Position numbers and translations under genes: made by a program. Shown here piece after piece: positions 24,201-46,196 of a stretch of DNA of 64,000 nt (within the stretch, counting starts at the first letter, position 1; each line of letters begins with the position of its first letter). Below the pieces are notes generated by a model that was not told the origin of the DNA, did no database searches, and saw only the letters and a program-made list of their open reading frames with translations. Source of the stretch: Myxococcales bacterium. GTDB lineage: Bacteria > Myxococcota_A > UBA9042 > JABWCM01 > BTVJ01. The stretch covers positions 66,406 through 130,405 of the forward strand of contig BTVJ01000001.1 in assembly GCA_045863395.1 (NCBI GenBank), written 5' to 3'.

Positions 24201-24542
24201 ATGTTCGTTCGCAAGCTCGTCACATTCATCTCGACCGCAGCTCTCACCACCGTCCTGGGAGTCGGCCTCGCGTCCGCAGATGGCAAGGACATCTTCACCA
24301 AGAACGGCTGCACCAAGTGCCACTCGGTCAAGAGCGCCGGCGTGATGAAGGAGGGCGGCGAGGAGGCGAAGGGCACCAAGGAGCTGTCCACGGTCGGCTC
24401 CCGGGAGGGCGTCACGGAGGACGCGCTGAGCGGCTTCCTCAAGAAGACGTCCGAGCTCCACGGAAAGAAGCACGCGAAAGAGTTCAAGGGGAGCGACGCA
24501 GACCTCAAGGCGCTCGTCGGCTGGCTCGCCAGCCTGAAGTAG
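24201..24542 (+). CDS. Small class I c-type cytochrome.
   Basis: ATG 24201 with GGAGG 6 nt upstream. 113 aa. Signal peptide MFVRKLVTFISTAALTTVLGVGLASA. Single CxxCH heme site, GCTKCH. Confidence 0.75.
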   Translation: MFVRKLVTFISTAALTTVLGVGLASADGKDIFTKNGCTKCHSVKSAGVMKEGGEEAKGTKELSTVGSREGVTEDALSGFLKKTSELHGKKHAKEFKGSDADLKALVGWLASLK

Positions 24543-24719
24543 CGTCCACCACTCAGAGCAGGGCTCCGCGGCCACCGCGTACCACGAAGACCCCCGTACC
24601 GACGGCGACCCGAGCAGGTCGCGTGCTACGACGCCTCACCAACGAGACAACCAGCTACTCACTGACTGCTACGGGCCGCGGAGCTCTGCGCTCGACTCGC
24701 ACGGCGGACAGCCGCGCTG

Positions 24720-27029
24720 TCAGGGGAGAGTCTCTGGAGCGCGCGTCCGGAATCGGCCATCGATTTCGCCTATCAGGTCGACGACGCTGTCCATGTAGCG
24801 CAGGTCGTCTCGCTCCTCCGCCCACCGGTTGGCGAGCAGGTTCAGGTAGAGGCTGCCGTCGTGGCACTCCATGACGAGCTGGGAGCTGGGAATCGACCGC
24901 TCCTCGCAGGATTCGTGGGGACCTGTGCAGGCTGGGTCCATGCACAGGCGCGTCCCGCTCGGCCCCTTGCGGCATGCGCACTCCCGCTGCCCGGTCACCT
25001 GGTCCACCCAGCAGCACGACCCGTCCGGAATGACGACGAGCACCCGCGCGAGCTGCCCATCGATCATGAAGGGAGCCAGGGCGACGCTGGCTGGCGCCAG
25101 GTCGACGGGCTCCTGCCCGTGCCCGTGCAGCATGAAGATCACGGGATAGCGCTGGTCCGCGAAGGCGGGGTCGTTGTAGCCAGGCGGCAGGATGGCGGTG
25201 TAGTTGCGGCGCGCCTTCATGGAGGGGCTGTAGAAGGTCAGGTTCTGGCTGAGATCCGACGTCAGGCCACCTCCCTTGCGGATGTCCGGGTCCGGCATGC
25301 GGCGGACCGCGAACGCGAGGAAGCCCACGAGCCGGTTGAGGGCCTGACCGATGTTCCCGACGTGCTTGCCGTCGCCCTTGTCGATCTGCGCCTGGGTCGC
25401 GTCCGGGCTCCCGTACTCCACCAGGACGTGCTTGCCGATGCCCTTCGCCGAGATGTCCGCCGACTGGATGGCGCCGATGAAGGCGTCCTCCTGGGAGTCG
25501 GGGAGCAGCGCGTCGGGGGCGCCTGCAAAGTTGTGATAGACCCGGATGTCCTCGCCCCGCGCCCGCAACGCCCCCACCACCTGCCGAGTGGCGACGAGCG
25601 AGTGCAACGTATCGCGGATGCCGCCATCGAACCAGAAGTCCAGGTTCTCGAGGTCTTCGGCCGGGAGATTCCGGATCTGCGTGAGCGCGTCCACGGCGCG
25701 CATGCGGTCAAACGCCGCGGTATAGTCGTAGACCCCGTTGCCCTCCCCATGGTCGGCGAACCCGCTCAGTCCCGCAGGGACCCCGTCGACTCCGAGGTCA
25801 TCAAAGGGCTCCCCGAACTCGTAGGACTCGTTGCCCTCCGTCCCCTCCGGCTTGTCCCACCAGTGGTAGTCATCGCCGTTGGGGTCTCCGTCGGCGGCGA
25901 TGGCCTCCGAGGGGAGACACCCGCCCAACCCATCCTCTCGGGAGCTGGGGCAGCCGTCGGCGCCGACGTCGCTCCACCGCTCGGCGGGGTTCACGAGGAT
26001 GGGCTCCCCCAGGTCGCGGCGCCCGTTGCCGTTGATGTCCACGGCCAGGAGCACGTCGACGGGGCGATCGTGCGCCACGGCCGGGTCGAACTCGTTCTTC
26101 GCCAGGCCAGGGGTCACTTGCTTGTCGGAGTCGCAAAACGGGATCACGGGCCAGGCTCCCGCCGGGTTGTACTCGGCGTTGAAGGATGCCTCGGCCGGTA
26201 CGGGCAGGGGGGCGGCGCAGCGGTCTTTCGGACTGGTGGAACTCCACCACTCCCACGACACGCCCGCCGGCAGGTAGGCGCTCTTTCCTTGGGCCGTCGA
26301 GAAGTTGCCGAAGGCCATCATGAACGACTGGAGGATGTCGGCGTAGAACTCGCGGTCGAAGGTCTTGCCGTCGTTGTCGAAGTGAAGGTGGTTCCAGTCC
26401 TGGGCGAACTCGTACTCGAAGGTGGGCTGCACCGGTCCACACGTCACAGGGGGAACGGCGACAGCATCGTTCAGGTCTGGAGCCGCCTCGAGCTGCTCCA
26501 GCGGGCAGAAGCCGCCGAGGTGGAGCCGCCTCCCCGCGGGCACGAAGTACGAGAAGTTGATGTAGCCGCCCATGGCGCCTACCACGTCGAACTTCTCTGG
26601 GTTCTGCAGCGCGATGAAGGCCGCCGCGGCGCCCATGGACACGCCACCGATGGCCCGGAAGTTCCATGTGCGCGGGGGGCCGGGTGGGTCGTCGGGCCCC
26701 GCGTCGGACTCGGCGTCTGGGTGCGCGTCCGGCGCAGCGTCCGGCGCGTCGGGCCCGGCGGCGTCCGGTGATCCGCCGACGTCATGCAGGGGGACATCGA
26801 CGGTCGCGTCCGTGGCCGCCGTGTCCTCGACGTGGGCCTCGTCGACGGCGGCGTCTTTGGCGGTGGCGATGTCGAGCCCCCCTGTGGCGGCATCCGCAGC
26901 GCTCGGCCCATCGCCGCCGCACCGGGACGCGGCGGTCACCATGAGCAAGGAGGCGAGCGTCCAGCGAACCGCCATCCAACGTGGGACAGTCTGGCGGAGG
27001 GGACCAGGGGGCCGTGTCAGAGGAGCCAT
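24720..27029 (-). CDS. Secreted alpha/beta-hydrolase, putative esterase family.
   Basis: Signal MAVRWTLASLLMVTAASRCGG. GxSxG nucleophile GGVSMGAAAAF and FMLHGHGQEP. Alternative start ATG 26975. Overlaps the stop of upstream gene 27017..30589 by 13 nt. Confidence 0.7.
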   Translation of the reverse strand: MAPLTRPPGPLRQTVPRWMAVRWTLASLLMVTAASRCGGDGPSAADAATGGLDIATAKDAAVDEAHVEDTAATDATVDVPLHDVGGSPDAAGPDAPDAAPDAHPDAESDAGPDDPPGPPRTWNFRAIGGVSMGAAAAFIALQNPEKFDVVGAMGGYINFSYFVPAGRRLHLGGFCPLEQLEAAPDLNDAVAVPPVTCGPVQPTFEYEFAQDWNHLHFDNDGKTFDREFYADILQSFMMAFGNFSTAQGKSAYLPAGVSWEWWSSTSPKDRCAAPLPVPAEASFNAEYNPAGAWPVIPFCDSDKQVTPGLAKNEFDPAVAHDRPVDVLLAVDINGNGRRDLGEPILVNPAERWSDVGADGCPSSREDGLGGCLPSEAIAADGDPNGDDYHWWDKPEGTEGNESYEFGEPFDDLGVDGVPAGLSGFADHGEGNGVYDYTAAFDRMRAVDALTQIRNLPAEDLENLDFWFDGGIRDTLHSLVATRQVVGALRARGEDIRVYHNFAGAPDALLPDSQEDAFIGAIQSADISAKGIGKHVLVEYGSPDATQAQIDKGDGKHVGNIGQALNRLVGFLAFAVRRMPDPDIRKGGGLTSDLSQNLTFYSPSMKARRNYTAILPPGYNDPAFADQRYPVIFMLHGHGQEPVDLAPASVALAPFMIDGQLARVLVVIPDGSCCWVDQVTGQRECACRKGPSGTRLCMDPACTGPHESCEERSIPSSQLVMECHDGSLYLNLLANRWAEERDDLRYMDSVVDLIGEIDGRFRTRAPETLP

Positions 27030-30000
27030 GTGATGATGATGCCCTTGATCAGGTCCGCGACGAGGCTCTGCGCGATGCCGTCCGTGGCCACCGACACGTC
27101 GAGGTCCACCGAGGCGGGCGCGCCCTCGTCGATGTCGGCGGCGAGGACGAAGCGCACGGTCAGGAACACGGGGTTGCCAACGACCTCACCTTGCTCGTCC
27201 AGCCAGGCCGTGGAGAGAGGCGAGGTGGGGTCACCGGCGTTGACGATGATCACGCCACCGAAGCCGCTCCAGTCTGCGATCTTCGTCGGGGCGATGCTGA
27301 CCGAGTGTCCCGACTGGAGCGAGGTGGAGCCGGCGCCGGTGGCGGGTACATCGAAGCAGTTGGGACCGAAGCACCAGCGGGAGTAGAAGTTGTCCAGAGT
27401 CAGGGCCGCCGTATCGTACGAGAGGGTGAACTCCAAACCCGTCGGGACTGGCTCCGCCTCGGAGGCACGGGCGATGCGAAGTGAGCAGTCCACCGTCGCC
27501 CCCTTCACTCCGAACACCGTGCAGAAGGTCGTGGAGCACGATGGATTGAGCGTCCCACCCGCGCACTGTCCTGCCTCGCACGAGTCGTCGAGCGTGCACT
27601 CGTCGCCGTCGTCGCAGGGCACCCCCGACGAGGGCGCGTGGGAGCAGCCAGCCACCTCGGCGCAGGAGTCCACCGTACAGGGGTTCCCATCGTCGCACGC
27701 CGCGTTCTGCGGCGCATGCAGGCACTGGCCCCCAATGCCGCAGGAGTCCAGTGTGCATGGGATGCCGTCGTCGCACGCCTTGGGACCGCCGGGCTTGCAC
27801 GCGGTGCCGTTGCACCCGTCCCCCTCGGTGCAGGGGTTACCGTCGTCACAGGGCGTCCCGCCCGCAGCCGCCGTGGACACGCAGCCGCTCAGAGTGCTGC
27901 ACGTGTTCGCGGTGCATGGGTTCCCGTCCTCGCAGACGCCATGGTCGGCCACATGCTTGCACCCAAAGCCCTGCACACACGAGTCGGCCGTGCAGAGGAT
28001 GCCGTCATTGCAGGCGGCGTCTGTGGGCGAGAAGACGCAGCCGCTCACCGGATCGCACGTGTCGAGCGTACAGGCGATGCCGTCGGTGCACGACGCGTTG
28101 TTTGGAGTGAACGTGCACCCGGTCTGCGGGTTGCACCCGTCCTGTGTGCAAGGGATGCCGTCGCTGCAGACCAGCGGCGTCCCCTTCGCGCAGGCCCCTG
28201 CGTTGCACTTCTCCGTTCCCGTGCAGACGCTCAGATCGTCGCAGTCGCCATCCACGGTGCACTCCGCAGACTCCTCCTTGCAGTCCGCGTCACAGCCGTC
28301 GAGCGGGTCCTTGTTCCCGTCATCGCACTCCTCCCCCGGGTCCAGGAAGTCGTTGCCGCAGGACTCGTCGGAGGTGCAGTCCGCACTGCAGCCGTCGCCG
28401 CCATCCTGGTTGTCGTCATCGCAGACCTCGCCGCAGGCCCAGTCGGTGGTGCCGTCGCCGCAGTAGGGAGCAGGGCCGTCCAGCTCGCAGCCCCCGCTCG
28501 CGATGTTGCACACCTCGACGCCGTTGCAGGGGTCGCCATCGTCGCAGACCAGCGGCGCTCCAGGGGTGCACGTCCCGCCAGCGCACTTGTCGTTGGCCGT
28601 ACACGGGTCCCCGTCGTCGCAGGGAGCGCTGTTGAAGCTGTGCCCGCACCCACCGCCGGTGCAGAAGTCCGTCGTGCAGGGGTTGGCGTCCTCACAGTCC
28701 TTGAGGCTCCCGGGGACGCACGCGCCGGAGTCGCAGGAGTCACCCTCGGTGCAGCCGTCGCCGTCACTGCACGGTCCCTCGACGGGCTGGTTGATGCACG
28801 TGCCGGTCAGGGCGTTGCACAGGTCGCTGGTGCAGGGGTTCTTGTCATCGCAGGTGTTGACGCCCTTTGGGAGACAGGCGCCGTCCTTGCAGGCATCCCC
28901 CGTCGTGCACGAGTCCCCATCGTCGCAGGGGAGGGTGTTCGGGGTGTGCTTGCACCCCGTCGCGGGGGCGCAGGTGTCGGTGGTACAGACGTCTCCGTCG
29001 TCACACGCTTTGGTGGTCCCAACGCACGCCCCACCCGCGCAGGAGTCGTTCTCGGTGCAGGCGTTGCCATCGTCGCAGGCGCCGGCTGTCGGCTCGTTGA
29101 GGCAGGACCCACCCGCGCATGAGTCCACGGTGCAGGGGTCGCCGTCGCCGCAGTTGATCAGGGTCCCTTTGCACGCCCCGGCGGCGCAGACATCATTGTA
29201 TGTACAAGCGTCTGCGTCATCACACGCGCCAGCGTTGGGCTCGTGCTTGCAGCCCCCCGGGGAGCCGGTGTCGCACGTGTCCTTGGTACAGACATTTCCG
29301 TCGTCGCAGTTGACGGCGATCGGAGTGTTGAGGCAGCCGCCGGTCTTCGGGTCGCACGCGTCGGTCGTGCATGGGTCGCCGTCGTTGCAGTCGATGGCGA
29401 CCGGTGTATAGAGGCACCCTCCGGTGAGGGGGTCGCAGGACACGTCCGTGCACCCGTCGCCGTCGTTGCAGAACAGCGGCTTGAGCGCCGAGGTGCACTC
29501 ACCGGTCAGCGGATCGCAGCCGTCGTTCGTGCACAGGCTCCCGTCGTCGCAGTCGAGGGCTACCGGGGTGAACGCACAGCTCCCCGTCTCTGGATCGCAG
29601 GCGTCATCCGTACAGAGGTTCCCGTCGAAGCAGTTGCCTGCGGCTGGGACGTGGGCACAGGTCCCGTCGTCAGGGTTGCAGGCGTCGTCGGTGCACTCGT
29701 TGTCGTCATCGCAGTCCAGCACCGCGGGCAGGGACACGCAGCCTCCGCTCCCGGGATCGCACGCGTCCGTCGTGCAGGCGTCGCCATCGTCGCAGCCAAG
29801 CAGACCCTGCCCCTTGCAGGCACCTTGCGAACACACGTCCCCGAGGGTACAGGGGTCGCCGTCGTCGCACGCCTTCGTGTTGGGGTTGTTTCGGCAGCCC
29901 TTCTTCTTGTCACACGTGTCCGTTGTGCAGGGGTTGTCGTCTTCGCAGTCGTCCTGCACCCCTTGGCAGCCGCCCCCGTCGCACTCGTCTTCGATGGTGC

Positions 30001-30589
30001 AAGGATCGCCGTCGTCGCACGCCAGCCCATCCTTCATGGCTCCGGTCTGGCACGCGCCGTCCTCGCAGCTCGCGGTCTGACAGGAGATGCCCTCCACCAG
30101 ATAGGCACAGTCGTCATCCTTGGAGCACTCGCTGGCGCCGGCGTCGAGGTCACCCCCCGTGTCGCCCTGAATGACCGTAACCTTGATGGACGCCCGCCCG
30201 GCGGTCCCACCGACGGCCTCACCGGCGTCGTCCACCACCTCGACTGCGATGGTGTGCGCCCCGAGGGGCACCGCAGTGAAGGTGAACCCGTCCCCCTCGA
30301 AGATGCGGCCCTTCTCCTTGCCGTCCAGCGTCATGGTGAGAACGTTGCCGAACTCCGACAGCTCGATGCCTTCCACCTCCACCTTGACGACGATGTCGGC
30401 GTCGAAGCCCGGAGTCTCGATGACCGCGCCATCGGTGGGCGACGCGATGGTGAGGCGTAGCTCGGTGCCGCCAGCGTCCTTGGCTCCACCGAACCCGGAG
30501 AAGGGCGGGAGCTTGGATGCCTCCACGCACCCCAAGGCGAGGGGCACGAGCGCGGCCAGGAGCCACTGAACCGAGCGGGTCACCGTCAT
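27017..30589 (-). CDS. Giant secreted Myxococcus-type cysteine-rich repeat lipoprotein (1190 aa), with an N-terminal Ig-like domain and a ~160-aa C-terminal domain shared with four neighbouring genes.
   Basis: ATG 30589 with GGAGG 6 nt upstream. Lipobox LALGCVEAS. More than 25 CxDDGNPCTxDxC repeats. Block of [18 protein letters not shown]../CGNDFLDPGEECDDGN motifs. C-terminal domain contains ..[42 protein letters not shown]. Confidence 0.8.
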   Translation of the reverse strand: MTVTRSVQWLLAALVPLALGCVEASKLPPFSGFGGAKDAGGTELRLTIASPTDGAVIETPGFDADIVVKVEVEGIELSEFGNVLTMTLDGKEKGRIFEGDGFTFTAVPLGAHTIAVEVVDDAGEAVGGTAGRASIKVTVIQGDTGGDLDAGASECSKDDDCAYLVEGISCQTASCEDGACQTGAMKDGLACDDGDPCTIEDECDGGGCQGVQDDCEDDNPCTTDTCDKKKGCRNNPNTKACDDGDPCTLGDVCSQGACKGQGLLGCDDGDACTTDACDPGSGGCVSLPAVLDCDDDNECTDDACNPDDGTCAHVPAAGNCFDGNLCTDDACDPETGSCAFTPVALDCDDGSLCTNDGCDPLTGECTSALKPLFCNDGDGCTDVSCDPLTGGCLYTPVAIDCNDGDPCTTDACDPKTGGCLNTPIAVNCDDGNVCTKDTCDTGSPGGCKHEPNAGACDDADACTYNDVCAAGACKGTLINCGDGDPCTVDSCAGGSCLNEPTAGACDDGNACTENDSCAGGACVGTTKACDDGDVCTTDTCAPATGCKHTPNTLPCDDGDSCTTGDACKDGACLPKGVNTCDDKNPCTSDLCNALTGTCINQPVEGPCSDGDGCTEGDSCDSGACVPGSLKDCEDANPCTTDFCTGGGCGHSFNSAPCDDGDPCTANDKCAGGTCTPGAPLVCDDGDPCNGVEVCNIASGGCELDGPAPYCGDGTTDWACGEVCDDDNQDGGDGCSADCTSDESCGNDFLDPGEECDDGNKDPLDGCDADCKEESAECTVDGDCDDLSVCTGTEKCNAGACAKGTPLVCSDGIPCTQDGCNPQTGCTFTPNNASCTDGIACTLDTCDPVSGCVFSPTDAACNDGILCTADSCVQGFGCKHVADHGVCEDGNPCTANTCSTLSGCVSTAAAGGTPCDDGNPCTEGDGCNGTACKPGGPKACDDGIPCTLDSCGIGGQCLHAPQNAACDDGNPCTVDSCAEVAGCSHAPSSGVPCDDGDECTLDDSCEAGQCAGGTLNPSCSTTFCTVFGVKGATVDCSLRIARASEAEPVPTGLEFTLSYDTAALTLDNFYSRWCFGPNCFDVPATGAGSTSLQSGHSVSIAPTKIADWSGFGGVIIVNAGDPTSPLSTAWLDEQGEVVGNPVFLTVRFVLAADIDEGAPASVDLDVSVATDGIAQSLVADLIKGIIITWLL

Positions 30590-30852
30590 TCCATGCCTCC
30601 GCTACCCCCTCGGGGAAGTCAGCCTCTGCGAGCGCCGGCTCGTGAGCATCCGGACGTTCTCCCCCGTCCAGGAACCCGACCGTGTGTGGGATCCACGCCC
30701 GGGTTTGGTAGCGTGCAAGGGCCCCTGGCGTCAACCGCCCACGGTTACCGGGGGATCGATCCAGCCGGACTTCAGGCTGGTCGCCGAACGCGGGACCGGA
30801 GACATCCTCGTGGACGCAAGCTCGCGCCCCCGTCCTGGACGCCCGATGTTCC

Positions 30853-32835
30853 CTAGGGCTCACCGCTCACGATGATCCCGCCGGTCACGGTCACAGGGAG
30901 GGAGAATGCGTCCGCGTCGGCCGCGGCGACGCCGTCCAATGTAACCAGAACGGGGGCCGACGCGGGAGCGGGGGAGAGGAGCTCGAAGCGCGCACGGAAG
31001 ACGACTGGATCGCCGACCAGCGCGCCCGCCTCGTTGTACCAGGCCTCGGTGAGGGGCGTGTGGGGAGCCCCGGGGTGCACGATGATGGCCGCGCCGCTGC
31101 CAGACCACCCCTCGAAGGTCGTCGGAGCAATGCTCACCTGGTGACCCGTGGAGAGGGGAAGGGCCCCCTGCCCCGCGACCACCTGGTCGAAGCAGCCCAC
31201 TCCCTCGAAGCACAGCTCGTCGAAGAACCCGATGATGCGGGCGCGCTCCTTCGGGTAGTCCATCACCAGCTCCAGCGCGGTGGCGGGAGGGGCGCCCGAG
31301 CTGACGGCCGCGAGGCGCACGGGGCAATCGATCTGATCGAGTGCATCCCCTGTCATGGCGCACGCGGCAGCGGCGATGGAGGTCGCGGCATCACCGACCA
31401 CGATCTTCTGCTCGGAGACCACGGCCGGGATCGACTCGGCCGCCGCGTTGGCCACCACCACGTTGGAGAGGGTCACCGGGTCCGTACCATCGACCTTCCG
31501 CTTGAAGACGGCCTGTACGAATTGCGGGTCTCCCTGGATGGTCCCCTCGGGATCCAAGTACGCATCGGAGATGGGCGCCGTGGGGTCCGAGATGTTGGCG
31601 ATCACCACCGAGCCCTTGCCCGCCCAGGCGGCGGCGTCGCCCGGCGACAAGCTCACCGAGTGTCCCGATGGCCACAGAGGAACAGGGGGCGTGGACATGA
31701 GCTGGCAGGGGCCCCCGATGCAGGACTCGTCCTCGAACCGAACGAACGCGATGCGGTTCGCGTCGTACAGCACGGTCATCTGGAGCGCGGCCGGTAGAGC
31801 GACGGATTGGCCGATTCGGACCAGGCGGAAGGGGCAGACGACCTCCGCGTCTGCCGCGCCCGTGACCAGACAGATGGGCTCGCCGAGCGGGGGAACACAC
31901 TCCGGGTCGGGTGTGCCGGAGCAGACCCCCTGCGAGCACACGTCTCCGAGGGAGCACGGGTCTCCGTCGTCGCACGGAGCCGTATTGGGAGTACCGACGC
32001 AGCCGCCGTCCACGCAGGCGTCATCCGTACATGGGTCATTGTCGTTGCAGGCCAGCGCGGGGCCAGGGGTGCAGATGGTGCCGGCGCAGGTCCCGCTGCC
32101 CGTGCAAGGGTTGCCGTCGTCACAAGGCTGCTCGTCCCGAACGACCAGCTCACAGGCGTCGCCGTTGCACGCCTCCAACTGGCACGGGCCAAGAACCGCG
32201 GGCGACACAAGCTTCCCGGTGCAGTCGGAGTCGGTCTTGCAGAGCAGGATGTTCTTCTGCTCGCACCGGTTGTTGGCGCACACCTCACCGTCTCCACACT
32301 CGGCGGCAGTGAGGCAGCAGCCTGCCACCGCCTCGTAGCTGCACAGCCCCTCCTCGCAGGCCTCTGTGCTGCACGGGTTCTTGTCCGCGCACTCCCCATC
32401 GGTGGTGCAGGCGGACACGACGGAGAACGTCACGGAGTCCTTGGAGCCGGAGCCCTCGTAGGCGCTCCCATCCCCCTTGACCGCCTGGGCCCCAAGGACG
32501 TGCAGCCCGGGCTCGGTGACAATGACGGTCCCCGTCAACGCGCGAAGGGTCATCGCGGAGGCACCGTCGAGGGACAGGGCGACGCCGTCGCCCCCGGCCG
32601 CAAGGGAGATGCCCTGGACCTCCAAGACCACCGGGACGCCAGCGGCGGCGACCGACAGCTCGAAGGCCTCGTCGTCCATCGGTCGGACGAAGGAGACGAC
32701 CACCGAGCTGGCGCTCGTGGCGTCCCCCGCGTCGGCCGAATCGGAGACCGTTGCGTCAGAGCAGCCGGTCAGGGCGACGCACCCGAAAAGTATGGCGACC
32801 AGGTGTCGCCGCCCGGACCAAAGCGGGTCGCGCAT
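30853..32835 (-). CDS. Secreted Cys-rich repeat lipoprotein (660 aa): Ig-like N-domain, a few Cys repeats, then two tandem copies of the shared ~160-aa C-terminal domain.
   Basis: True start is ATG 32835 (MRDPLWSGRRHLVAILFGCVALTGC, lipobox). It overlaps the upstream stop (TGATG). The ORF-track N-terminal extension to 33183 is Arg-rich junk. Two domain copies contain SGHSVSLSP..GKGSVVIANISDPTAPI and STGHQVSIAPT..GSGAAIIVHPGAPHTPL. Confidence 0.75.
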   Translation of the reverse strand: MRDPLWSGRRHLVAILFGCVALTGCSDATVSDSADAGDATSASSVVVSFVRPMDDEAFELSVAAAGVPVVLEVQGISLAAGGDGVALSLDGASAMTLRALTGTVIVTEPGLHVLGAQAVKGDGSAYEGSGSKDSVTFSVVSACTTDGECADKNPCSTEACEEGLCSYEAVAGCCLTAAECGDGEVCANNRCEQKNILLCKTDSDCTGKLVSPAVLGPCQLEACNGDACELVVRDEQPCDDGNPCTGSGTCAGTICTPGPALACNDNDPCTDDACVDGGCVGTPNTAPCDDGDPCSLGDVCSQGVCSGTPDPECVPPLGEPICLVTGAADAEVVCPFRLVRIGQSVALPAALQMTVLYDANRIAFVRFEDESCIGGPCQLMSTPPVPLWPSGHSVSLSPGDAAAWAGKGSVVIANISDPTAPISDAYLDPEGTIQGDPQFVQAVFKRKVDGTDPVTLSNVVVANAAAESIPAVVSEQKIVVGDAATSIAAAACAMTGDALDQIDCPVRLAAVSSGAPPATALELVMDYPKERARIIGFFDELCFEGVGCFDQVVAGQGALPLSTGHQVSIAPTTFEGWSGSGAAIIVHPGAPHTPLTEAWYNEAGALVGDPVVFRARFELLSPAPASAPVLVTLDGVAAADADAFSLPVTVTGGIIVSGEP

Positions 32836-38800: not shown

Positions 38801-41354
38801 CACAGGCGGTACCGTTCGGCACCGCCACGCCGCACGCTCCCGTGGCGAGGTCGCACACGTCCACGGTGCAGGGATCGCCGTCGCTGGCACAGGTCACTGC
38901 GGTCCCGGCGCACACGCCTGCGGAGCAGGTGTCTCCAGACGTACAGACATTGCCGTCGTCGCACGCCGCACCCTCCGCAGCCGGCGCCCCACAGGTACCG
39001 GTCGCCCCGTTGCAGATGTCGCTCGTGCAAGGGTTACCGTCGTCACCGCAGGTGACAGGGGTCCCGGCGCAAGCGCCGGCGCTGCACGCATCCCCCGTGG
39101 TGCAGAGGTTGGCGTCGCTGCATACGGTCCCGTTCGGAAGCGCGAGTCCGCAGCCGCCTGTCGCGGGATCACAGACGTCGCTGGTGCAGGGGTTGCCGTC
39201 GTCCGCGCACGCCTTGGGGGCACCATGGCAGGCGCCAGCCTGACACACGTCGGACACGGTGCAGACATCACCGTCGCTGCACGCCGTGCCGTTGGCAACG
39301 GCTGTGCCAGCGCAGGATCCGCCGGTGCAGGCGTCTCCTGCGGTGCAGGGGTTGCCGTCGTCGCAAGCGCCGCCCTCACCGACCCCAGCACCCGCACACA
39401 CGCCGGCCGTGCAGGCGTCGTTCGCCGTGCAGGCATCACCGTCGTTGCAGGTGGAGCCATTCGGGAGCGCCGTGCCAGCGCACACGCCAGCGCCGCACAC
39501 GTCGAGGGCCGTGCAGGAGTTGCCGTCGTCACAGGAGGTCCCGTTGGGCGCCGGCACACCACAGGCGCCCGTGGCCGGATTGCACAGGTCGAGGGTGCAC
39601 GGATCGCCGTCAGACCCGCAGCCGAGAGCAACGCCCTGGCACACCCCAGCGTTGCACACGTCATTGACCGTGCAGAGGTTCCCGTCGTCGCAGAGGGCCC
39701 CGTTCAGGGCCGTGACGCCACATGCGCCGGTCTGCGCGTCGCAGGCGTCCGCGGTGCAGGGGTTGCCGTCATCGCCGCACGTCGCCGGGATGCCCTGGCA
39801 CGCGCCTCCGATGCACACGTCTCCCGAGGTACAGGCGTCCGCGTCCGTGCAGGTCGTCCCGTCCCCGGCCGCTACACCGCAGGCTCCGGTGTCCGGGTTG
39901 CACACGTCAGTGGTGCAGGCGTTGCCGTCGCTGGGGCAGGACTTTGCGGTACCGGCGCAAGCTCCAGCGGTGCACAGGTCGAGGACGGTGCAGAGGTCTC
40001 CGTCGTCGCAGGCCGTGCCGTTGACCACGGGCGAGCCAGCACAGAGGCCGGACTGGCACACGTCCCCCTGCGTGCACCCGTTGTCGTCGTCGCACGGAGT
40101 CCCGTTGGGGTTCACCCCACCGCCACTGCACGTGCCAGCCTGGCAGGTGTCGGTGGTCGTGCACGAGTTGCCGTCGTCGCAGGACGTCCCGTTCGCCACC
40201 GGCGCACCCGCGCACCCCCCGGCGCCGCACGCGTCGCTGGCAGTGCACGGGTTGTCGTCATCGCAGAGCGTCCCCGGCGCGGCGGCCCCCCCGCACGCGC
40301 CGGTCACGGCGTCGCAGGCGTCAACTGTGCACGGATCCCCATCGTCCGGGCAGGACTTCGGAACACCGGCGCACGCGCCCGCAGTGCAGGAGGTGAGCAG
40401 CGTACAGGGGTCACCGTCGTCGCACGCAGTGCCGTCCGCAGCTACCGAATTGCAGGCGCCCGTCGCCGGGTTGCACGTGTCCTGGGTGCAGGGGTCACCG
40501 TCATCGGAGCAGGTGGTCAGGGCGCCCACACACGCGCCGACCTGGCAGGTGTCGCCCGTGGTGCAGAGGTCCCCATCGTCACAGCCGGTCCCATTCGCAA
40601 ACGGGAAGCCGCACGTACCACTGGCGGGGTTGCACGCATCCAAGGTGCAGGGGTTCCCGTCGTCAGCGCACTGGACCTCGACGGCCTGACAGGTTCCGCC
40701 GACGCAGGTGTCCCCGGTCGTGCAGGTGTCGCCATCGTCGCAGGTCGCGCCCGACAGAGAGACCCACCCGGTGGGGTTGGTCCCCGGCACACACTTCTCG
40801 CAGGTGTTCGTTGGGTTCAGCGCATCAGCCGCGACGCAGTCGCCACCGATGGCGCAGCCGCCAGGACACGAGCAGGCGTTGATGGCGGTCGGGAAGGACA
40901 AGGGATCCAGCGGATCGGTCCCATTGGCGATCTCGCAGGTGTCCGGGTAGGTGTCCCCGTCATCGTCCTCGTCGCAGCCGTTGTGGAGGTCGTCCCGGTC
41001 CGGGTCCGCGACCGCGATGAGCCCGTTGATCCCCTCATCTGAGCTCAGCTTGTAGAGGCGCAGCAGGATGATGCGCTGGACGTCCGTGACGTCCAGCTTG
41101 CCGTCGCACTGAAGATCCGCGTCCGCGTCGCTCACCGCCTGGCAGACGGGATTGGGATCCCCCTGGGCCTGCGTCAGAACAGCGCCGATGTAGCAGTTGA
41201 TGTCGGCGACGTTGACCAGCTCGTCGAGGTTGATGTCTCCCGAGTGGAGAGGGAGCGGGGCCGCAGAAGCCGTCCCTACGCCGAGGGTCCCCGCCAGGAT
41301 CGCCGCCGCGGCGAGTGCCCTCCCCCACGTTGAACACCCACCGTCGGAGCTCAT
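32835..41354 (-). CDS. Giant (2839 aa) secreted repeat protein: signal peptide, dockerin-like Ca-binding pair, about 70 tandem 36-aa Cys repeats, then the shared C-terminal domain.
   Basis: ATG 41354 with GGGAGG 7 nt upstream. ATGA overlap with the upstream gene. Signal MSSDGGCSTWGRALAAAAILAGTLGVGTASAAP. Repeats of the form [48 protein letters not shown]. C-terminus SGHAVSLSP..GGSVVLSNSSDPTAPL..LVIKTSP. Confidence 0.8.
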   Translation of the reverse strand: MSSDGGCSTWGRALAAAAILAGTLGVGTASAAPLPLHSGDINLDELVNVADINCYIGAVLTQAQGDPNPVCQAVSDADADLQCDGKLDVTDVQRIILLRLYKLSSDEGINGLIAVADPDRDDLHNGCDEDDDGDTYPDTCEIANGTDPLDPLSFPTAINACSCPGGCAIGGDCVAADALNPTNTCEKCVPGTNPTGWVSLSGATCDDGDTCTTGDTCVGGTCQAVEVQCADDGNPCTLDACNPASGTCGFPFANGTGCDDGDLCTTGDTCQVGACVGALTTCSDDGDPCTQDTCNPATGACNSVAADGTACDDGDPCTLLTSCTAGACAGVPKSCPDDGDPCTVDACDAVTGACGGAAAPGTLCDDDNPCTASDACGAGGCAGAPVANGTSCDDGNSCTTTDTCQAGTCSGGGVNPNGTPCDDDNGCTQGDVCQSGLCAGSPVVNGTACDDGDLCTVLDLCTAGACAGTAKSCPSDGNACTTDVCNPDTGACGVAAGDGTTCTDADACTSGDVCIGGACQGIPATCGDDGNPCTADACDAQTGACGVTALNGALCDDGNLCTVNDVCNAGVCQGVALGCGSDGDPCTLDLCNPATGACGVPAPNGTSCDDGNSCTALDVCGAGVCAGTALPNGSTCNDGDACTANDACTAGVCAGAGVGEGGACDDGNPCTAGDACTGGSCAGTAVANGTACSDGDVCTVSDVCQAGACHGAPKACADDGNPCTSDVCDPATGGCGLALPNGTVCSDANLCTTGDACSAGACAGTPVTCGDDGNPCTSDICNGATGTCGAPAAEGAACDDGNVCTSGDTCSAGVCAGTAVTCASDGDPCTVDVCDLATGACGVAVPNGTACDDGDQCTVADVCTAGVCGGAPKTCADDGHECTADECDPATGECYPPAANGTACDDGDACTADSCSNGVCVGAPVANGSPCDDDNLCTTGETCTAGVCGGGSGVPDGSPCDDSNSCTVGELCTGGTCGGGATLPNGASCNDGDACTHSDQCQGGSCGGVILTCADDGNPCTVDVCNASTGSCGQWAGDGSSCSDGDACTTGDVCLSGACQGGSVFCAPDGDPCTVDACVSGSCGAPAPNGTTCDDGDLCTSSDACTGGTCGGLAVICPDDGDACTSQTCQGGTCGLPVPNGGPCDDGNPCTADACVGGVCISTPLANGTSCDDGDACTTGDMCAGGACIGTGVGNGNPCDDGNPCTAGDVCSGGACAGTVVSNGTSCTDGDLCTTGDQCLGGACLGTPKTCADDGNGCTVDACNPMTGACGVAAADGTACDDGEICTYLDACSSGSCGGAEAGCSAECTASCVPGDCTAPGSNGTACDDGNPCTLNDLCQAGVCSGTLKTCGDDGNSCTQDACNPATGACGVALPNGTSCDDGNTCTTDACQAGVCVGAPLANGAPCSDGDACTGGDTCQGGACQPGAPILGSCDDGNPCTINDTCVAGACAGTVVPNGTVCSDGDACTLGDTCSSGTCSGAPKTCGDDGNACTTDVCDSVTGLCGVAVEDGTACDDGDLCTVGDLCVAGTCGGAPKSCANDGNPCTDDVCDAATGACGVARPNGTSCNDSNACTSGDACVAGTCNGVAVVCGDDGNECTTDACNPATGTCGVPVAELTPCAGGDSCSTWSCSAGICAFEAPGPDGAGCDDDNACTSGDQCLGGSCLGTPLYAGGCDDGDTCTLNDACVGGACVGQAVPNGTSCDDGDLCTVADACVAGACTGTLKSCANDGNPCTDDVCNGATGACGVAVTNGSPCSDGSTCTYLDACSGGTCAGTSVTCDDDANPCTTDQCNPANGTCGVGLPDGSGCSDGDLCTVSDVCLGGACGAVAVTCSSDGNACTTDTCNPASGLCGIAVEDGAVCSDGAACTVNDACVSAECAGTATECPDDSNPCTVEACNTGSGACGLPAANGTACDDGNPCTTGDACAAGACQGTPVACADDGDPCTSDVCNPGTGVCGAPAADGIACDDGDVCTVLDTCSGGVCGGTPKTCADDGNPCTTDACDPSSGACGVAVVNGTPCDEGGPCVIEACQAGSCTVTGNQDGASCDDEEACTTGDTCSGGLCAGTPLADGSTCDDGNPCTSSVGSCASGTCEATALADGTACDDEDSCTIADACSAGTCVGLEKTCASDGNPCTSDVCNPATGGCGVLAEDGSSCDDAAACSTGDVCVAGVCAGAVVGCADDGNPCTADTCDAGTGVCGVPVTDGTACSDGDSCTIADQCIGGTCSAAPVICPDDDNPCTLDSCNEQGQCGVPAANGSACDDGNPCTTDSCLDGVCVSETVSDGTVCDDGNGCSGNDLCMQGVCTGLAVPNGSPCDDENACTAGDTCSMGTCSGSAVANGTACSDGDLCTTADMCTGGVCGGTPKSCGSDGNPCTTDVCNPQTGACGVALVDGTLCEDGSPCTNLTTCTAGVCSGSLVTCGTDDNTCTVDVCNPVSGACGLNAANGNPCTDGEACTSGDACLNGVCTGAGATCEPQGNPCVLDLCDAVTGLCGVLAPDGTLCDDGDACTTGDVCFAGACVAANASGTSCDDGDLCTTGDACSGGACVGSAVTCADDGSACTQDVCNPLTGSCGLPTADGGACDDGNPCTTGTTCVGGTCGGGTTTTCADDGDPCTVDACNPATGLCGVAAADGAPCDDGEQCTVPDACTGGVCSGPTYEACTDPQAGLTCLLSGDQGETVECPIRLARSSIGAPVPTALQFNMHYDGTKAVISHFNDGEKCFVPTVCVPWDIPTNFSSLQSGHAVSLSPALGSWVTGGSVVLSNSSDPTAPLATGYFDNGVVVDDDIVFTAVFTLAEAVSASTPVEVTMDNVVASDASATGLPVEILNLVIKTSP
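33375..40772 (-). repeat. In-frame array of about 70 degenerate 108-bp (36-aa) Cys-rich repeat units inside the giant gene.
   Basis: Periodic recurrence of the CDDG[ND]xCT..D.C..(A/S/G/V)TG.CG motif across residues ~195-2660 of the 2839-aa product. Repeats are diverged at the DNA level, not identical. Confidence 0.7.
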
Positions 41355-42007
41355 CGGGCGCCTCCCGTCACGATGACGCCAGCCTCGGTCCTCGCCGGGA
41401 CTGCCGCCGCGTCCTGATCCGCCGCCACCAGCGCCGTCGCCGTCACGACGACGGGGGAGGACGCCGGCGCCTCACCGGAGAGCCGGAACCGTGCGGTGGC
41501 CACGACCGCGTCACCCTCGACCGCGCCGCTCCGAAGGACGGCCTGCGTGATCGGCGTCGTCGGGCTCGTGAAGTGGGCGATGACCAGCGACCCCTTGCCA
41601 GCCCAGGCCTCCGGCTGGTCCGGGCTCTGGAGCACGCTGTGCCCCGTGCGCGCGACGACCGGCTCCTCGGCAGTCAAACGACGCTCGGCGGCTCCGGCAT
41701 CGAACAGCCCGATGAAGGTGGCGCGGGCGCTGTCATACCCGAGCGTGAGCTGGAGCGCGCGAGCGGCGACCGTGTCCGGCACCGCGGCGAGGCGCACCGG
41801 GCAGGACACCACGGCGCCGGCCGCACCGGAGAGCTGACAGATGGCGGCGCCGGACAGGGGCGCCACAGCCGCAGGGCTCGTAGGAACGACGGCCTCCGTG
41901 GCCGTCGCCTCCGTGGGCTTCTCAGGCGCCTTGGTGGTCTGCTGGGTCCCCTCGCAGCCCACGATGGTGACGCCGAACACGAGAGACAGTGCGATGAGCT
42001 TCTTCAT
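41351..42007 (-). CDS. Small lipoprotein (218 aa) made up only of the ~160-aa domain shared by the four giant proteins.
   Basis: ATG 42007 with GGGAGG 5 nt upstream. Lipobox VTIVGCEG, then a Thr/Ala/Pro linker. Domain signature ..CPVRLAAV..ARTGHSVLQSPDQPEAWAGKGSLVIAHFTSPTTPI..VIVTGGAR. Its stop overlaps the giant gene's start. Confidence 0.7.
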   Translation of the reverse strand: MKKLIALSLVFGVTIVGCEGTQQTTKAPEKPTEATATEAVVPTSPAAVAPLSGAAICQLSGAAGAVVSCPVRLAAVPDTVAARALQLTLGYDSARATFIGLFDAGAAERRLTAEEPVVARTGHSVLQSPDQPEAWAGKGSLVIAHFTSPTTPITQAVLRSGAVEGDAVVATARFRLSGEAPASSPVVVTATALVAADQDAAAVPARTEAGVIVTGGAR

Positions 42008-42035
42008 GGGGGTCCTCCCGACGGTGGTTCGACGC

Positions 42036-45000
42036 CTACTGCGCCCAGGTGACGATGATTGCGTTGATGATCTCGGAGACCAGGGTGGCTGCCTGCCCGT
42101 CCGCGCTTACCAGGTTGGTCAGCTCCACCTGGGCCGGGTTGCCGGCCGCGACGTCGCTGAGGAGCTTGAACTTGACGCGCACCATCTCGGGTTCGCCCTC
42201 GATGGCGCCCGCCTCGATGTACGCGTTGCTCAACGGCACGGTGGGATCTGACGTGTTGACGATGACCACCGCTCCGGATCCCTTCCAGTCCGCTACCTTC
42301 GTTGGCGCGATGGACACGGAGTGCCCCGTCGAGAGCGGCGTCGAGCCAGGCCCGGTGACGGGTGTCTCGAAGCACCCGAAGCCCGGGAAGCACAGCTCGT
42401 CATAGAAGTTGTCGAGCTGAAGGACGGTCTCGTCGTAGTCCACCGCGAACTCGATGCCCGTCGCGGGCGGATCCGCCTCGGTCTCGCGCGCAACGCGAAC
42501 CGAGCAGGTGACGATCTCGCCCGTCGATCCTGACAGGTCGCAGACGAAGCCCGGCGGGGCCCCGCACCCGGGGTGGGGACCACCCGCAACGCAGACGCCG
42601 TCCTGGCACTGGTCGTCTTGGGTGCAGGGGTTGCCGTCGCTGCACGGGAGCGCGCTCAGCGGGATGTGGTAGCACCCGTCCAAGGCATCACAGGCATCTG
42701 CGGTGCACGCATTGCCATCGTCACAGAGCTGGTTCTCTGCCAGGTTGACGCACGTCCCCTGTGCCGTGCAGGAGTCGACGGTGCAGGCGATGCCGTCGTC
42801 ACAGTTCACCAGTGGCCCTGCGGTGCATTTGACCCCGGCGCACGTGTCGTTGGTGGTGCAGGGGTTCCCGTCGTCGCACGCAGCGCCCGGCGCCTTCACA
42901 TACTGCTGGCAGCCCGCCACCAGGTCGCAGATGTCGTCGGTGCAGGAGTTCCCGTCGCTGCACGCCAGATCGTCCGGCACGAACACGCACCCAAGGACCG
43001 GGTCGCAGGTGTTGAGCGTGCAGGCGACCCCATCTGCGCAGTTCAACGACGTCCCGGGCTTGCAGCCGCCCGCCACGCACTTCTCGATGCCGGTGCAGAC
43101 GCTGCCGTCGTCGCAGTCCGCGTCGGTGGTGCAGTCGAGGCTCTCGACCAGGCACTCGGGGCTGCACCCATCGTTGGGCAGCTCGTTGCCGTCATCGCAG
43201 TCCTCCCCGGGATCGGTGAAGCCGTTGCCGCACTCCTCGTTGGACGTGCACGACGCGTTGCACCCGTCGTCGGAGAGCTCGTTGCCGTCGTCGCAGGCCT
43301 CACCGGGGTCCACAAAGCCGTTGCCACACTCCTCGTTGGAGGTACACGACGCGTTGCAGCCGTCGCCGGAGTCGTTGTTGCCGTCGTCGCACACCTCGCC
43401 GCACGCGAGGTCCTCGGTGCCGTCGCCGCAGTAGGGCGCGTCACCGGCCTGACAATAGAGACTGCCGGCGTCGCAGGTCTCCGCCCCATTGCAGGGGTCC
43501 CCGTCATCGCAGAGGGCCGCGGCCGCCGGGATGCACCGATCCGTGGGCGCTGACACGATGAGGCCGTCCTGTACCCAAGTGTGCAGCTCCGCGCCCGCCG
43601 TGCTCCAGGACGTGACGTTGTGCAGGTAGACGAACACGGGCGCCTCGACCGGGATGTCGATCTTCGTCGACATATGGAGGGTGAGGATCTCCGGGTCGCC
43701 CTGGACGGCGCCACCGGCGAGCCACGCCTCCGTCAGTGGCGACGCGGGGTCGCTGACGTTGGCCAGATGCACGTCCACGTTGCCGAGCCAGTTCGCGGGG
43801 CTCGCGGGCGTCAAGCTCGCGGTGTGCCCGCTCGGAGAGAGCTTGTTCGGCGGAACCGCCGCAGCGACGCAGCTCGCCCCGAAGCACACGGTGTCGGTCA
43901 TGCCCTGCATCTTGAGGCTGGCCGACTCGAACTGGAGCACGAAGTGGAGGGTGCCGGGCAGTGGCGTCCCATCATCGAAGCGGGCGTGCTTGATCGGACA
44001 GGTGATCGACGTGCCCGTCGGCCCCGCCACGGCGCACAGGGCCGCTGCGTCCAACGCACAGCTCGGGAGGAGGGCGCCGGGGGTACAGGCGCCAGCCGCG
44101 CACACGTCGCCCTGGGTGCAGGGGTCCTTGTCGTCGCAGGGCGCAGTGTTGAACGCGGTCGTGCACGCGCCGGTGACCGCGTCGCATGCGTCGTCGGTGC
44201 AGGGATCCCCGTCGTTGCAGACCTTGGCGACGCCGCCACACGCCCCGTCCTTGCACGTGTCCTGGGAGGTGCACGCGTTGCCGTCGTTGCAGGGGGCGGT
44301 GTTGGGCGTGTAGATGCATGCGCCGTTCGTCGGGTTGCATGCGTCGTTCGTGCAGGGGTTGCCGTCGTCGCAGGCGGTCGAGGTCCCGGGCGTGCACTCC
44401 CCTGCGGAGCAGACGTCGTCGGTCGTGCAGGGGTCGTGGTCATCGCAGGGGGCCGTGTTGGGCGCCGTGGTGCACCCCCCGGTCGCAGGATCGCAGGAGT
44501 CGTCCGTACACGGATCGTCGTCGTCGCACACCACGAGGGGCACCCCGAAGCACGCACCCGTTGCAGGGTCGCAGGCCTCATCGGTGCAGGCGTCGCCGTC
44601 GTCGCAGAGGACCGCCGCGAGGTGGGCGCACGCCCCGGTCGCAGGATCGCAGGCGTCCGTGGTGCACAGGTTGCCGTCGTCGCAGTTCAGGGTGATGGGC
44701 GTGTTGGAGCAGTTGCCCGTCGCCGGGTTGCACGAATCGGTGGTGCAGAGGCTTCCGTCGTCGCAGTCCTTCTCGGGACCGGCCGTGCAGACGCCGGCCT
44801 GGCACGCGTCCCCCACGGTGCAGCCGTCCCCGTCGTCGCAGGCCAGGCCCGCGGCCGCATCGCTGAGCACGCACTGCCCGCTCGACGGGTTGCACGCCAC
44901 GGTCTTGCAGGCGGGCGGCGCCGCGCAGTCGACGATGGTCGCCGTGTCGAGCACGCAGGAGCCATCCTGGCACTTCAGGGTCCCGTTGCAGAGGTTGCCG

Positions 45001-45815
45001 TCCTCCTTCGAGGCGCAGTCGGCCGTCGTGTTGCACTCCCCGCAGATATCGGGGCCCGCCTTGCAGGCGCCCCCCTGGCACTGGTCGGGCCCCGTGCAGG
45101 CGTCGCCGTCGTCGCAGGCCGCCACGTTGTTCGTGTAGACGCACCCCAGGTCCGGGTTGCAGGCGTCGTCAGTGCAGCCATTGTCGTCGTTGCAGGCCTT
45201 GGGTTTGCCAGCGACGCACGCGCCGGCGTCGCAGTGGTCGTCCTCGGTGCAGGCGTCGCCGTCGTCGCACACCGTGGTGGTGGGCTCGTTCACGACCCGG
45301 CAGGTGCCCTCGTCCTTGTCACAAGACGCGGTCTGGCAGGGCCCCGACGCCTTGCTCGCACAGTCCGCGTCGGTGGTGCACTCCGGCGCATCTGCCTTCT
45401 TCTTGACGACGACGGTCACCTCGTCGACGTAGTCGGCGCCGTCAAAGGGCACGCCCTCACTGCGCAGGGCCTGCACCCCAAGAGTGTGGGATCCGAGCGG
45501 GACGGCGGCGAAGGTGTAGGTGTGGCCCGTCGCCAGCGTGGCCACCTCGACGCCGTCAAGGGACAGCGACAGCAGGGGCCCTCCGTCGGCCAGCTCCAGC
45601 CCGAGCACCTGGAGCTCGGCGACGATGTCGACGGTGTCGGTGGTGGTCTCGAAGACCTCCCCCGCCGAGGGAGAGAGGAAGGAGACGGAGACGGTGCCAC
45701 CGCCTGCGTCGGCGTCACTCGTGGTCTGCACCACCGAGTCGTCCGAACAGGCGGCGAGCGCCAGCAGCGCGCTCGCCCAAGCCGACATCCATGTCATCCT
45801 CGCCCGACCGATCAT
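42036..45815 (-). CDS. Giant secreted Cys-rich repeat lipoprotein (1259 aa): Ig-like N-domain, Cys repeats, one internal and one terminal copy of the shared C-terminal domain.
   Basis: True start is ATG 45815 ([26 protein letters not shown]) with GGGAGG 7 nt upstream. The ORF-track extension to 45980 has no RBS. Contains a [18 protein letters not shown]../[16 protein letters not shown] block. Terminal domain ..[41 protein letters not shown]. Confidence 0.75.
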
Positions 45816-46196
45816 GCGGTTCCTCCCGTTGGTGGCCAGCCACTGGCCGTTGCAGAGCCCCTGATCGACCACCAACGGCCGCCCTGGTGCTCTGCGCCCG
45901 ACGCGACACACCAGCAAGCCGGACCCGGGACAACCCTCGCGGGACTGCCGGTCCTGGTCGTCGGGCGAACGGACGCTCAATGCCGATCCCTAGCTCTGTT
46001 CGACCCTCCCAGTCAACGCCAAACATCCACGCGGCCATCGGGGGGGGAGGACGCTGTCACCCGTCCGAGGGCATCGATGGCGCTCCGGACCGCGGCCCAA
46101 GCGCACTTCAGCGTCAGGGGAATCCGTTGAGGCCCCCCCTGGTTTGTGCTACGGTCCGCGACCCTGGGCGGGAGCAACGGAAGTGATCGAGGGTTC

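Follow-up and report, generated by a model that had tools for sequence, protein, structure and literature searches.

The 64-kb stretch analysed here (the window; G+C content ~70%) comes from contig BTVJ01000001.1 of a Myxococcales bacterium and carries on its minus strand six consecutive genes, here called g1 to g6. The locus is best understood as encoding a non-cellulosomal cohesin-dockerin scaffold of the cell surface, an interpretation to which we give a probability of about 0.6 and in which the two kinds of module would bind one another. Four of the products (g1, g2, g4 and g5) read as cohesin-bearing anchoring scaffoldins and the giant g3 as a dockerin-rod-cohesin adaptor; together they would probably form a structural fibre network on the cell surface and not an enzyme complex. 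An initial annotation of the window had proposed a co-expressed extracellular assembly of five paralogous lipoproteins. The assembly gains a recognised mechanism because the domain shared by these proteins is a cohesin and the unanchored g3 starts with a dockerin; expression from a single operon is uncertain, and the description as five lipoproteins fails for g3, which has no lipobox.

The domain on which this interpretation turns is ~170 aa long and ends all five proteins g1-g5. Its presence on each of them, as first annotated, is borne out by phmmer and alignment; its copy number is not five but seven when the internal copies of g1 and g4 are counted, the one in g1 having been absent from the initial annotation. 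The seven copies share 25-51% pairwise identity and retrieve one another in single-sequence phmmer searches at E = 1e-15 to 1e-51, and a profile scan of all six frames of the window found exactly these seven and no others. Three match the Pfam Cohesin family (PF00963) at E <= 1, the g2 copy (27.6 bits) and the second g1 copy (26.3 bits) scoring above the gathering cut-off of 24.1, and the remaining four are tied to these three by their sequence identity. An AlphaFold2 model of g2 residues 46-218, built from a 13-sequence alignment, has a mean predicted local distance difference test score (pLDDT) of 94.9 and shows the nine-stranded beta jelly-roll of cohesins; when it was compared with the PDB by Foldseek, the top 50 matches were all cohesins. 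The subfamily also has an invariant pair of cysteines, located close to where the domain begins. The identification of the shared terminal domain as a cohesin leaves little room for doubt.

The corresponding docking module was found at the N-terminus of g3, where it had previously been missed. This protein has a type-I signal peptide that ends in TASA, directly before AP, and no PS51257-type lipobox; its domains follow in the order dockerin, acidic segment resembling thrombospondin type 3 repeats (TSP3-like), ~90 Dicty_CTDC-type (CTDC) repeats and C-terminal cohesin. The mature N-terminus reads GDINLDELVNVADINCYIGAVL...DADLQCDGKLDVTDVQRIILLRL. Within the dockerin segment are two calcium-binding loops of 12 residues each, DINLDELVNVAD and DLQCDGKLDVTD, both followed by a helix, which is the duplicated F-hand arrangement of dockerins. 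Against Pfam Dockerin_1 (PF00404) the segment scores 18.5 bits (E = 0.0024) over profile positions 2-53 of 57. A hidden Markov model (HMM) was built from six such segments and run over the cohesin-family relatives, where it picked up 30 segments, the six seeds among them, distributed over 28 sequences. In the 28 segments that were aligned, each loop has an invariant Asp at position 1 and another at position 12, and three cysteines are invariant as well. When the 28-sequence profile was searched against the PDB, 18 of the 23 matches were dockerins, aligned along their full length (best match 4dh2_B, E = 0.0084, followed by 4fl4_A, 2y3n_B and 5nrm_B). Dockerin_1 itself is matched by 17 of the 28 family members, at best with E = 5e-8, and two relatives from GTDB genomes exceed its cut-off (L028, 27.3 bits; L015, 26.9 bits). 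Judged from its sequence, the N-terminal module of g3 is probably a divergent, three-cysteine dockerin. Few parts of g3 are as well conserved (86-87% identity in orthologues), and the TSP3-like segment that follows is 89-92% conserved. TSP3 matches also occur at two other dockerin loci: L019 has a strong TSP3 match (aa 313-384) N-terminal to the dockerin (aa 542-603) of the same protein, and in L036 the dockerin is adjoined by a weak TSP_3 match that, at 24.3 bits, falls short of the cut-off of 25. When the g3 N-terminus was used in a word-index search for homologues, only one fragment (P0008) was retrieved.

The other four proteins carry lipoboxes as judged by the PROSITE pattern PS51257: g1 LAAC (Cys23), g2 IVGC (Cys18), g4 LTGC (Cys25) and g5 ALGC (Cys21). 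A lipobox had at first been assigned to all five products, which stands for these four. Behind the lipobox, g1 consists of an Ig-like domain, CTDC repeats, cohesin A, TIGR02232 repeats, further CTDC repeats and cohesin B; g4 of an Ig-like domain, a few Cys repeats and two cohesins, A and B; and g5 of an Ig-like domain, CTDC repeats, TIGR02232 repeats, CTDC repeats and one cohesin. In g2 a Pro/Ala/Thr linker leads to a single cohesin, and the protein is the candidate minimal anchoring scaffoldin. That g1, g4 and g5 share a homologous N-terminal domain of ~100 aa, as also proposed earlier, is supported by phmmer and alignment (26-39% identity; E = 1e-13 to 1e-15, with 4e-4 for g4 against g5). 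Its Ig-like fold was part of the same proposal, and here the matches are weak (Big_7, E = 0.018; the Fn3-like module of CbhA, 3pdd, E = 0.018; and BiPBP_C), so that the domain is only tentatively called Ig-like.

Between these end domains lie Cys-rich repeats, which belong mainly to Pfam Dicty_CTDC (PF00526; cut-off 27 bits), matched by g5 at E = 3e-67 (222 bits), by g1 at E = 9e-40 (134.5 bits) and by g3 at E = 6e-15 (55.2 bits, in 15 stretches). The repeats themselves had been recognised in the initial annotation; the label given to them there, TIGR02232/DUF4215, applies only to short central stretches of g1 (63.1 bits, E = 1.5e-17) and g5 (31.9 bits, E = 8e-8; TIGR02232 cut-off 20.8 bits). 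In the family-model search g4 matched neither PF00526 nor TIGR02232. The rod of g3 is the extreme case, with ~88 repeat cores spaced alternately by 25 and 28 residues in a protein that contains 385 cysteines (13.6%). The g3 protein aligns with one orthologue over 2839 residues with zero gaps and 79% identity, and with the other (2837 aa) at 73% identity with one 2-residue gap. This constancy of length (2839, 2839 and 2837 aa), unusual in a repeat protein, suggests selection on the length of the rod. Conservation extends to the cysteines: 384 of the 385 in g3 are retained, the exception lying within the signal peptide, as is every cysteine of g1 (125 of 125) and g5 (137 of 137). Once signal-peptide and lipobox cysteines are removed, the number of cysteines is even in all five mature proteins, which fits complete disulfide pairing; up to 192 disulfides would be possible in the g3 rod protein and, by arithmetic from the cysteine counts, up to ~340 across the proteins of the locus if all mature cysteines were paired. 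Of the 27 N-G-[ST] motifs in g3, 25 occupy one fixed repeat position (..P-N-G-T-x-C-D-D-G..), alternating with D-G-[ST]; these sequon-like motifs may serve a structural purpose or be sites of glycosylation.

A repeat-rich giant reading frame might in principle arise from faulty assembly. This was rejected for g3, which has full-length orthologues in two other metagenome-assembled genomes (MAGs) and whose repeats are diverged at the DNA level; the g2 protein and parts of both flanking reading frames are, moreover, found on independent Logan contigs. More specifically, the DNA of the g3 repeats contains only short tandem repeats with 71-85% matches, and the repeats are therefore old and not an artefact of assembly.

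The g2 protein and AMXMBFR64_00690, which comes from a MAG named 'Myxococcales bacterium', have identical sequences, and the whole six-gene locus occurs in the same order in two ENA MAGs labelled Myxococcota_JABWCM01. The flanks are syntenic as well, with genes for a rhodanese, a MauE/DoxX protein and a UvrA-like protein on one side and for cytochrome c, DabB and DabA on the other. The three genomes are close relatives, so their shared gene order says little about a functional link. With the cohesin profile, an exhaustive HMMER search that covered 1.84 billion representative proteins returned 379 relatives at E <= 1e-3 and 307 at E <= 1e-10, and some of these have a scaffoldin-like layout of up to eight cohesins with CTDC repeats between them. 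Those with names are proteins of Myxococcales MAGs annotated as 'hypothetical' or 'lamin tail domain-containing'. A scan of GTDB species genomes with the g2-family alignment gave no confirmed relative.

The relatives also supply indirect support for binding between the two modules, in the form of co-occurrence and of a recurring gene order. The dockerin is found in 26 of the 156 best cohesin relatives, mostly right after the signal peptide and in a few at the C-terminus. Four proteins (P0098, P0083, P0100 and P0128) repeat the dockerin-rod-cohesin layout of g3, and since P0098, itself a giant, is encoded in a sister genome on a contig other than that of the locus, bearers of dockerins exist outside the operon. 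A degenerate DNA pattern for dockerin loop 2, run on the GTDB species genomes, identified 25 loci, six of them in the JABWCM01 reference MAG, others in another Myxococcales MAG and in a Bradymonadales MAG, and a few outside the phylum. At five of the loci examined a gene ending in a cohesin is followed by one starting with a dockerin (L025, a pair resembling g2 and g3, and L026, L031, L023 and L016). According to Pfam, ten dockerin carriers examined in related genomes combine the module with a lamin-tail domain (LTD), DUF4215, TSP3, beta-propeller or Dicty_CTDC, or give no further Pfam match; none has a glycoside hydrolase, protease or carbohydrate-binding module (CBM). Two dockerin sub-types can be distinguished, one followed by a TSP3-like segment as in g3 and the other by a lamin-tail domain. 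Three-cysteine dockerins were also observed at L015/L019/L036 in Candidatus Peribacteria, a Pseudomonadota MAG and Candidatus Magasanikbacteria, fused to a PQQ-like beta-propeller in the Peribacteria protein and placed after TSP3 repeats in that of the Pseudomonadota. Thus, the three-cysteine dockerin, being present outside the Myxococcota, is more widespread than the cohesin subfamily sampled here.

An assembly consistent with these architectures can be outlined. The proteins g1, g2, g4 and g5 would be tethered by their N-terminal lipid and would present one or two cohesins at the far end of a disulfide-rich stalk, which in g2 would be a short linker only. The g3 protein would be secreted without a lipid anchor, its dockerin forming the first folded module ahead of a ~2500-residue rod and a terminal cohesin. 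This dockerin, of the Ca2+ type, could plug into the cohesin of an anchored lipoprotein, for which the translationally coupled g2 is the prime candidate, and a long rod of set length would thereby be docked to the cell surface. The cohesin at the distal end of g3, together with those left unoccupied in g1, g4 and g5, would be free to capture dockerin-bearing structural proteins encoded elsewhere in the genome, for example dockerin-rod-cohesin paralogues or dockerin-LTD proteins. The outcome would be a branched, Ca2+-dependent and disulfide-rich extracellular fibre or matrix layer, with a presumed role in adhesion or matrix formation.

Several observations weigh against this scaffold. The Dockerin_1 score of g3 is below the Pfam cut-off of 22.9, and the AlphaFold2 model of the g3 N-terminus, built from a two-sequence alignment only, has a pLDDT of 38, although it has helices at 18-32 and 58-76, each immediately behind one of the loops. 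The window contains exactly one dockerin against seven cohesins, so that most binding partners, if there are any, would have to be encoded outside it. The full gene set is known in three closely related genomes only, and exposure of the lipoproteins on the outer surface, as opposed to a periplasmic location, is something that we infer. The low dockerin score and the imbalance of the two modules would suit the most likely of the three alternatives, in which the proteins are independent paralogous adhesins whose cohesin-like jelly-rolls recognise polysaccharide, prey envelope, mineral or some other ligand that is not a protein, and the EF-hand pair at the g3 N-terminus is a mere Ca-binding stabiliser. 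We consider this unlikely: the top structural matches are all true cohesins and not CBMs, the dockerin repeatedly accompanies this cohesin subfamily in the best relatives, and dockerin-starting genes are found again and again directly downstream of cohesin-ending ones.

Cohesin-dockerin pairs of cellulosomes, the classical systems, recruit enzymes, and the locus could by analogy specify a cellulosome-like complex whose cohesins gather dockerin-tagged hydrolases for the degradation of polymers or prey, with g6 as one of its catalytic parts. The g6 product does resemble family CE1 feruloyl esterases, and its start overlaps g5 in all three genomes. It carries neither dockerin nor cohesin, however; its family is widespread and elsewhere unlinked to cohesin genes; family-model searches found no glycoside hydrolase or CBM domain in any of the six products; and the ten dockerin carriers likewise have no glycoside hydrolase, protease or CBM. 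Enzyme recruitment is accordingly the less plausible of these two alternatives, and clearly improbable. Least probable of all, and rejected here, is that the shared domain is a secretion or sorting signal comparable to the C-terminal domains of type IX secretion substrates or to MYXO-CTERM. Its exactly terminal position in all five proteins would be explained in this way, but the internal copies in g1 and g4 and the arrays of four to eight copies in relatives would not, and a ~170-aa domain of cohesin fold is unlike known C-terminal sorting domains.

The scaffold favoured here may be extended, more speculatively, to a hierarchical, enzyme-free 'matrixosome' in the uncultured Myxococcota lineage JABWCM01, a self-assembling and Ca2+-dependent lattice of extracellular fibres, which we regard as possible but doubtful. 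Anchored cohesins would dock the 2839-aa rod through a type 1 dockerin (that followed by a TSP3-like segment), and the distal cohesin of the rod would capture proteins with a type 2 dockerin (that followed by a lamin-tail domain), in a lattice whose Cys-repeat building block is shared with the slime-sheath matrix of Dictyostelium. If this were true, the cohesin-dockerin pair would be a general device for building bacterial extracellular matrix, and the repeats may point to a common origin of matrix repeats in social bacteria and social amoebae, or to their transfer between the two.

The positions of the genes and modules are collected in Table 1. The coordinates of the six reading frames and of the junctions reported in the initial annotation all proved correct: a 28-nt gap between g1 and g2 (42008..42035), an ATGA in which the g2 stop overlaps the g3 start (41351..41354), a TGATG in which the g3 stop overlaps the g4 start (32833..32837) and a 13-nt overlap of the g6 start with g5 (27017..27029). 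A 263-nt gap between g4 and g5 (30590..30852) had not been mentioned. Four of the five junctions are thus tight, consisting of overlaps or of gaps of <=28 nt. Shine-Dalgarno sequences (GGGAGG/GGAGG) precede g1, g2, g3 and g5 and were not found at the overlapping starts of g4 and g6, which fits translational coupling of the latter two. The g4-g5 gap contains a promoter-like element whose -35 box is identical in the alignment of the three genomes and whose -10-like hexamer is TACCAA in two and TACGAG in the third; a second element, upstream of g1, is also conserved in the three genomes, and both have the general form TTGAC(G/T)-N18-TAnnnA. Both conserved elements are regarded as putative promoters. 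A scan with a strict sigma-70 consensus found no promoter and did not pick up the g4-g5 element, no terminator-like site was found on the minus strand within the scanned stretch 23800..31000, and Rfam searches returned nothing, whether for the g1 leader at E-value thresholds as high as 1 or for 23.8-46.5 kb at the gathering threshold. Because of the conserved element in the g4-g5 gap, the locus may have an internal promoter before g5-g6, a single 21-kb transcript is not assured, and the proposal that g1 to g6 form one operon is uncertain.

Table 1. Genes, protein modules and promoter-like elements of the locus (positions in the window; aa, residues of the respective product)
Feature	Position	Strand	Description
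g1	42036..45815	-	1259-aa lipoprotein; ORF and translation
g2	41351..42007	-	218-aa lipoprotein
g3	32835..41354	-	2839-aa secreted giant
g4	30853..32835	-	660-aa lipoprotein
g5	27017..30589	-	1190-aa lipoprotein
g6	24720..27029	-	769-aa CE1/feruloyl-esterase-like alpha/beta hydrolase
g1 Ig-like domain (tentative)	45396..45698	-	aa 40-140
g1 cohesin A	43545..44075	-	aa 581-757; local HMM, phmmer, alignment
g1 cohesin B	42042..42575	-	aa 1081-1258; Pfam Cohesin 26.3 bits; 51% identical to g5 cohesin
g2 cohesin	41360..41872	-	sole cohesin of g2
g3 dockerin (probable)	41034..41243	-	aa 38-107
g3 TSP3-like acidic Ca-binding segment	40875..41033	-	aa 108-160; TSP3_bac E = 0.057, weak
g3 Cys-rich rod	33366..40874	-	aa 161-2663; alternating 25-/28-aa Dicty_CTDC-type repeats
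g3 cohesin	32841..33365	-	aa 2664-2838, C-terminal; 80-84% conserved in orthologues
g4 Ig-like domain (tentative)	32416..32706	-	homologous to g1 domain
g4 cohesin A	31390..31899	-	aa 313-482
g4 cohesin B	30859..31380	-	C-terminal copy
g5 Ig-like domain (tentative)	30170..30469	-	homologous to g1 domain
g5 cohesin	27026..27553	-	C-terminal copy
Promoter-like element upstream of g1	45987..46016	-	TTGACT 46016..46011, 18-nt spacer, TAGGGA 45992..45987
Promoter-like element, g4-g5 gap	30705..30734	-	TTGACG 30734..30729, 18-nt spacer, TACCAA 30710..30705

The last gene, g6, matches Pfam Esterase at E = 2e-7 and the feruloyl esterases 1jjf and 7xrt in the PDB, with the two halves in reversed order. 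Residues 589-671 of g6 align to residues 27-109 of 1jjf (the XynZ feruloyl esterase), and residues 123-229, with the GxSxG elbow, align to residues 145-246, an arrangement that suggests a circular permutation. Its lipobox deviates by an Arg at position -1 (TAASRC); those of its orthologues are canonical. The Myxococcota hydrolases of ~550-1030 aa to which it belongs form a large family; the sampled members carry lipoboxes, and in a more distant MAG (L013) this family is not linked to cohesin genes. The possibility that g6 is dockerin-tagged cargo was rejected, the dockerin HMM giving no match even at E <= 10; it is probably a co-transcribed passenger and not a core part of the system.

Divergent from g1 and syntenic in the three genomes are genes for a rhodanese (46146..46796, plus strand) and a MauE/DoxX membrane protein (46799..47269, plus strand), which could conceivably act in thiol/disulfide handling for the g1-g5 proteins. 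Beyond them lies a UvrA-like protein (~47500..52818, plus strand) with a duplicated UvrA_inter domain and multiple ABC ATPase domains in a reading frame of up to 2004 aa; its orthologue has at least 1786 aa. On the other side, inorganic-carbon-pump genes encoding DabA and a DabB-like protein (Proton_antipo_M) converge on the locus (18246..23924, plus strand), with a cytochrome c reading frame at 23934..24542. Farther away are a 673-aa product (14574..16595, minus strand) with four Kazal-type serine-protease-inhibitor domains (E = 1.5e-20), a domain that is mostly eukaryotic, and a 683-aa product (7323..9374, minus strand) with an IgGFc_binding domain (E = 3.7e-58).

Comparison with the cellulosome scaffoldins of Clostridia (OlpA/OlpB/SdbA and CipA of C. 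thermocellum, ScaA/ScaB of A. cellulolyticus) reveals a common plan, namely cohesins on cell-anchored proteins, an adaptor protein with a dockerin and one or more cohesins, two Ca-loops in the dockerin, and clustered scaffoldin genes. Unlike the clostridial systems, the one described here belongs to a Gram-negative Myxococcota host, is anchored by an N-terminal lipid instead of surface-layer homology (SLH) domains or sortase, and has, in place of the linkers, disulfide-rich CTDC repeats that run to hundreds or thousands of residues; its cohesin has an invariant Cys pair and its dockerin three invariant Cys. It also differs in the absence of CBMs and of dockerin-tagged glycoside hydrolases: a cellulosome combines dockerin-tagged enzymes with a CBM-bearing scaffoldin, and neither was found among the six products or the ten related dockerin carriers.

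The closest conceptual precedents are non-cellulosomal cohesin and dockerin proteins of anaerobic methanotrophic (ANME) archaea and syntrophic sulfate reducers, which have been proposed as adhesins (PMC9012536, PMC10553843). As here, both modules occur outside plant cell-wall degradation, and a role at the cell surface, in matrix or in cell-cell contact has been proposed for them. Non-cellulosomal cohesins have been structurally characterised from Archaeoglobus fulgidus (2xdh) and Clostridium perfringens (2jh2, 2vo8 and 2w1n); in the latter the modules join toxins and glycosidases, whereas no enzymes are seen to be joined here. The present locus differs from the ANME, A. fulgidus and C. perfringens examples in lineage and in its lipobox anchors, its CTDC rods and a dockerin-rod-cohesin giant of conserved length. 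As for the rods, Dicty_CTDC repeats characterise the extracellular-matrix proteins EcmA/EcmB of Dictyostelium (PMC4931340, Table 4). The g1, g3 and g5 rods belong to the same ~24-aa Cys-rich repeat family as those of EcmA/EcmB and of the Myxococcus Cys-rich repeat proteins (TIGR02232/DUF4215), and in social amoebae such repeats make secreted matrix proteins; unlike this locus, however, the eukaryotic EcmA/EcmB have no cohesin, dockerin or lipid anchor. No account of a cohesin-dockerin system from Myxococcota was found in full-text searches of the literature, in agreement with the earlier statement that no operon of this architecture had been described. Since non-cellulosomal cohesin-dockerin modules are already known and widespread, the locus is noteworthy but not categorically new.

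Among the high-affinity protein connectors of bacteria, cohesin-dockerin pairs are the best understood, and synthetic biology makes wide use of them. To our knowledge, almost all of the characterised cases come from Gram-positive degraders of plant fibre. What is described here is a coherent system in a Gram-negative Myxococcota, with lipoprotein anchors, apparently structural cargo and conserved cysteines in both modules, and with a distinctive spacer, a ~90-repeat rod that keeps its length and its 384 cysteines from species to species. Should the docking prove real, new, orthogonal and probably disulfide-stabilised cohesin-dockerin pairs would become available, and the 'Myxococcus Cys-rich repeat' proteins would gain a testable mechanism of assembly. 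It would also provide a candidate explanation for how some uncultured myxobacteria build matrix or attach in the biofilms of bioreactors or sediments.

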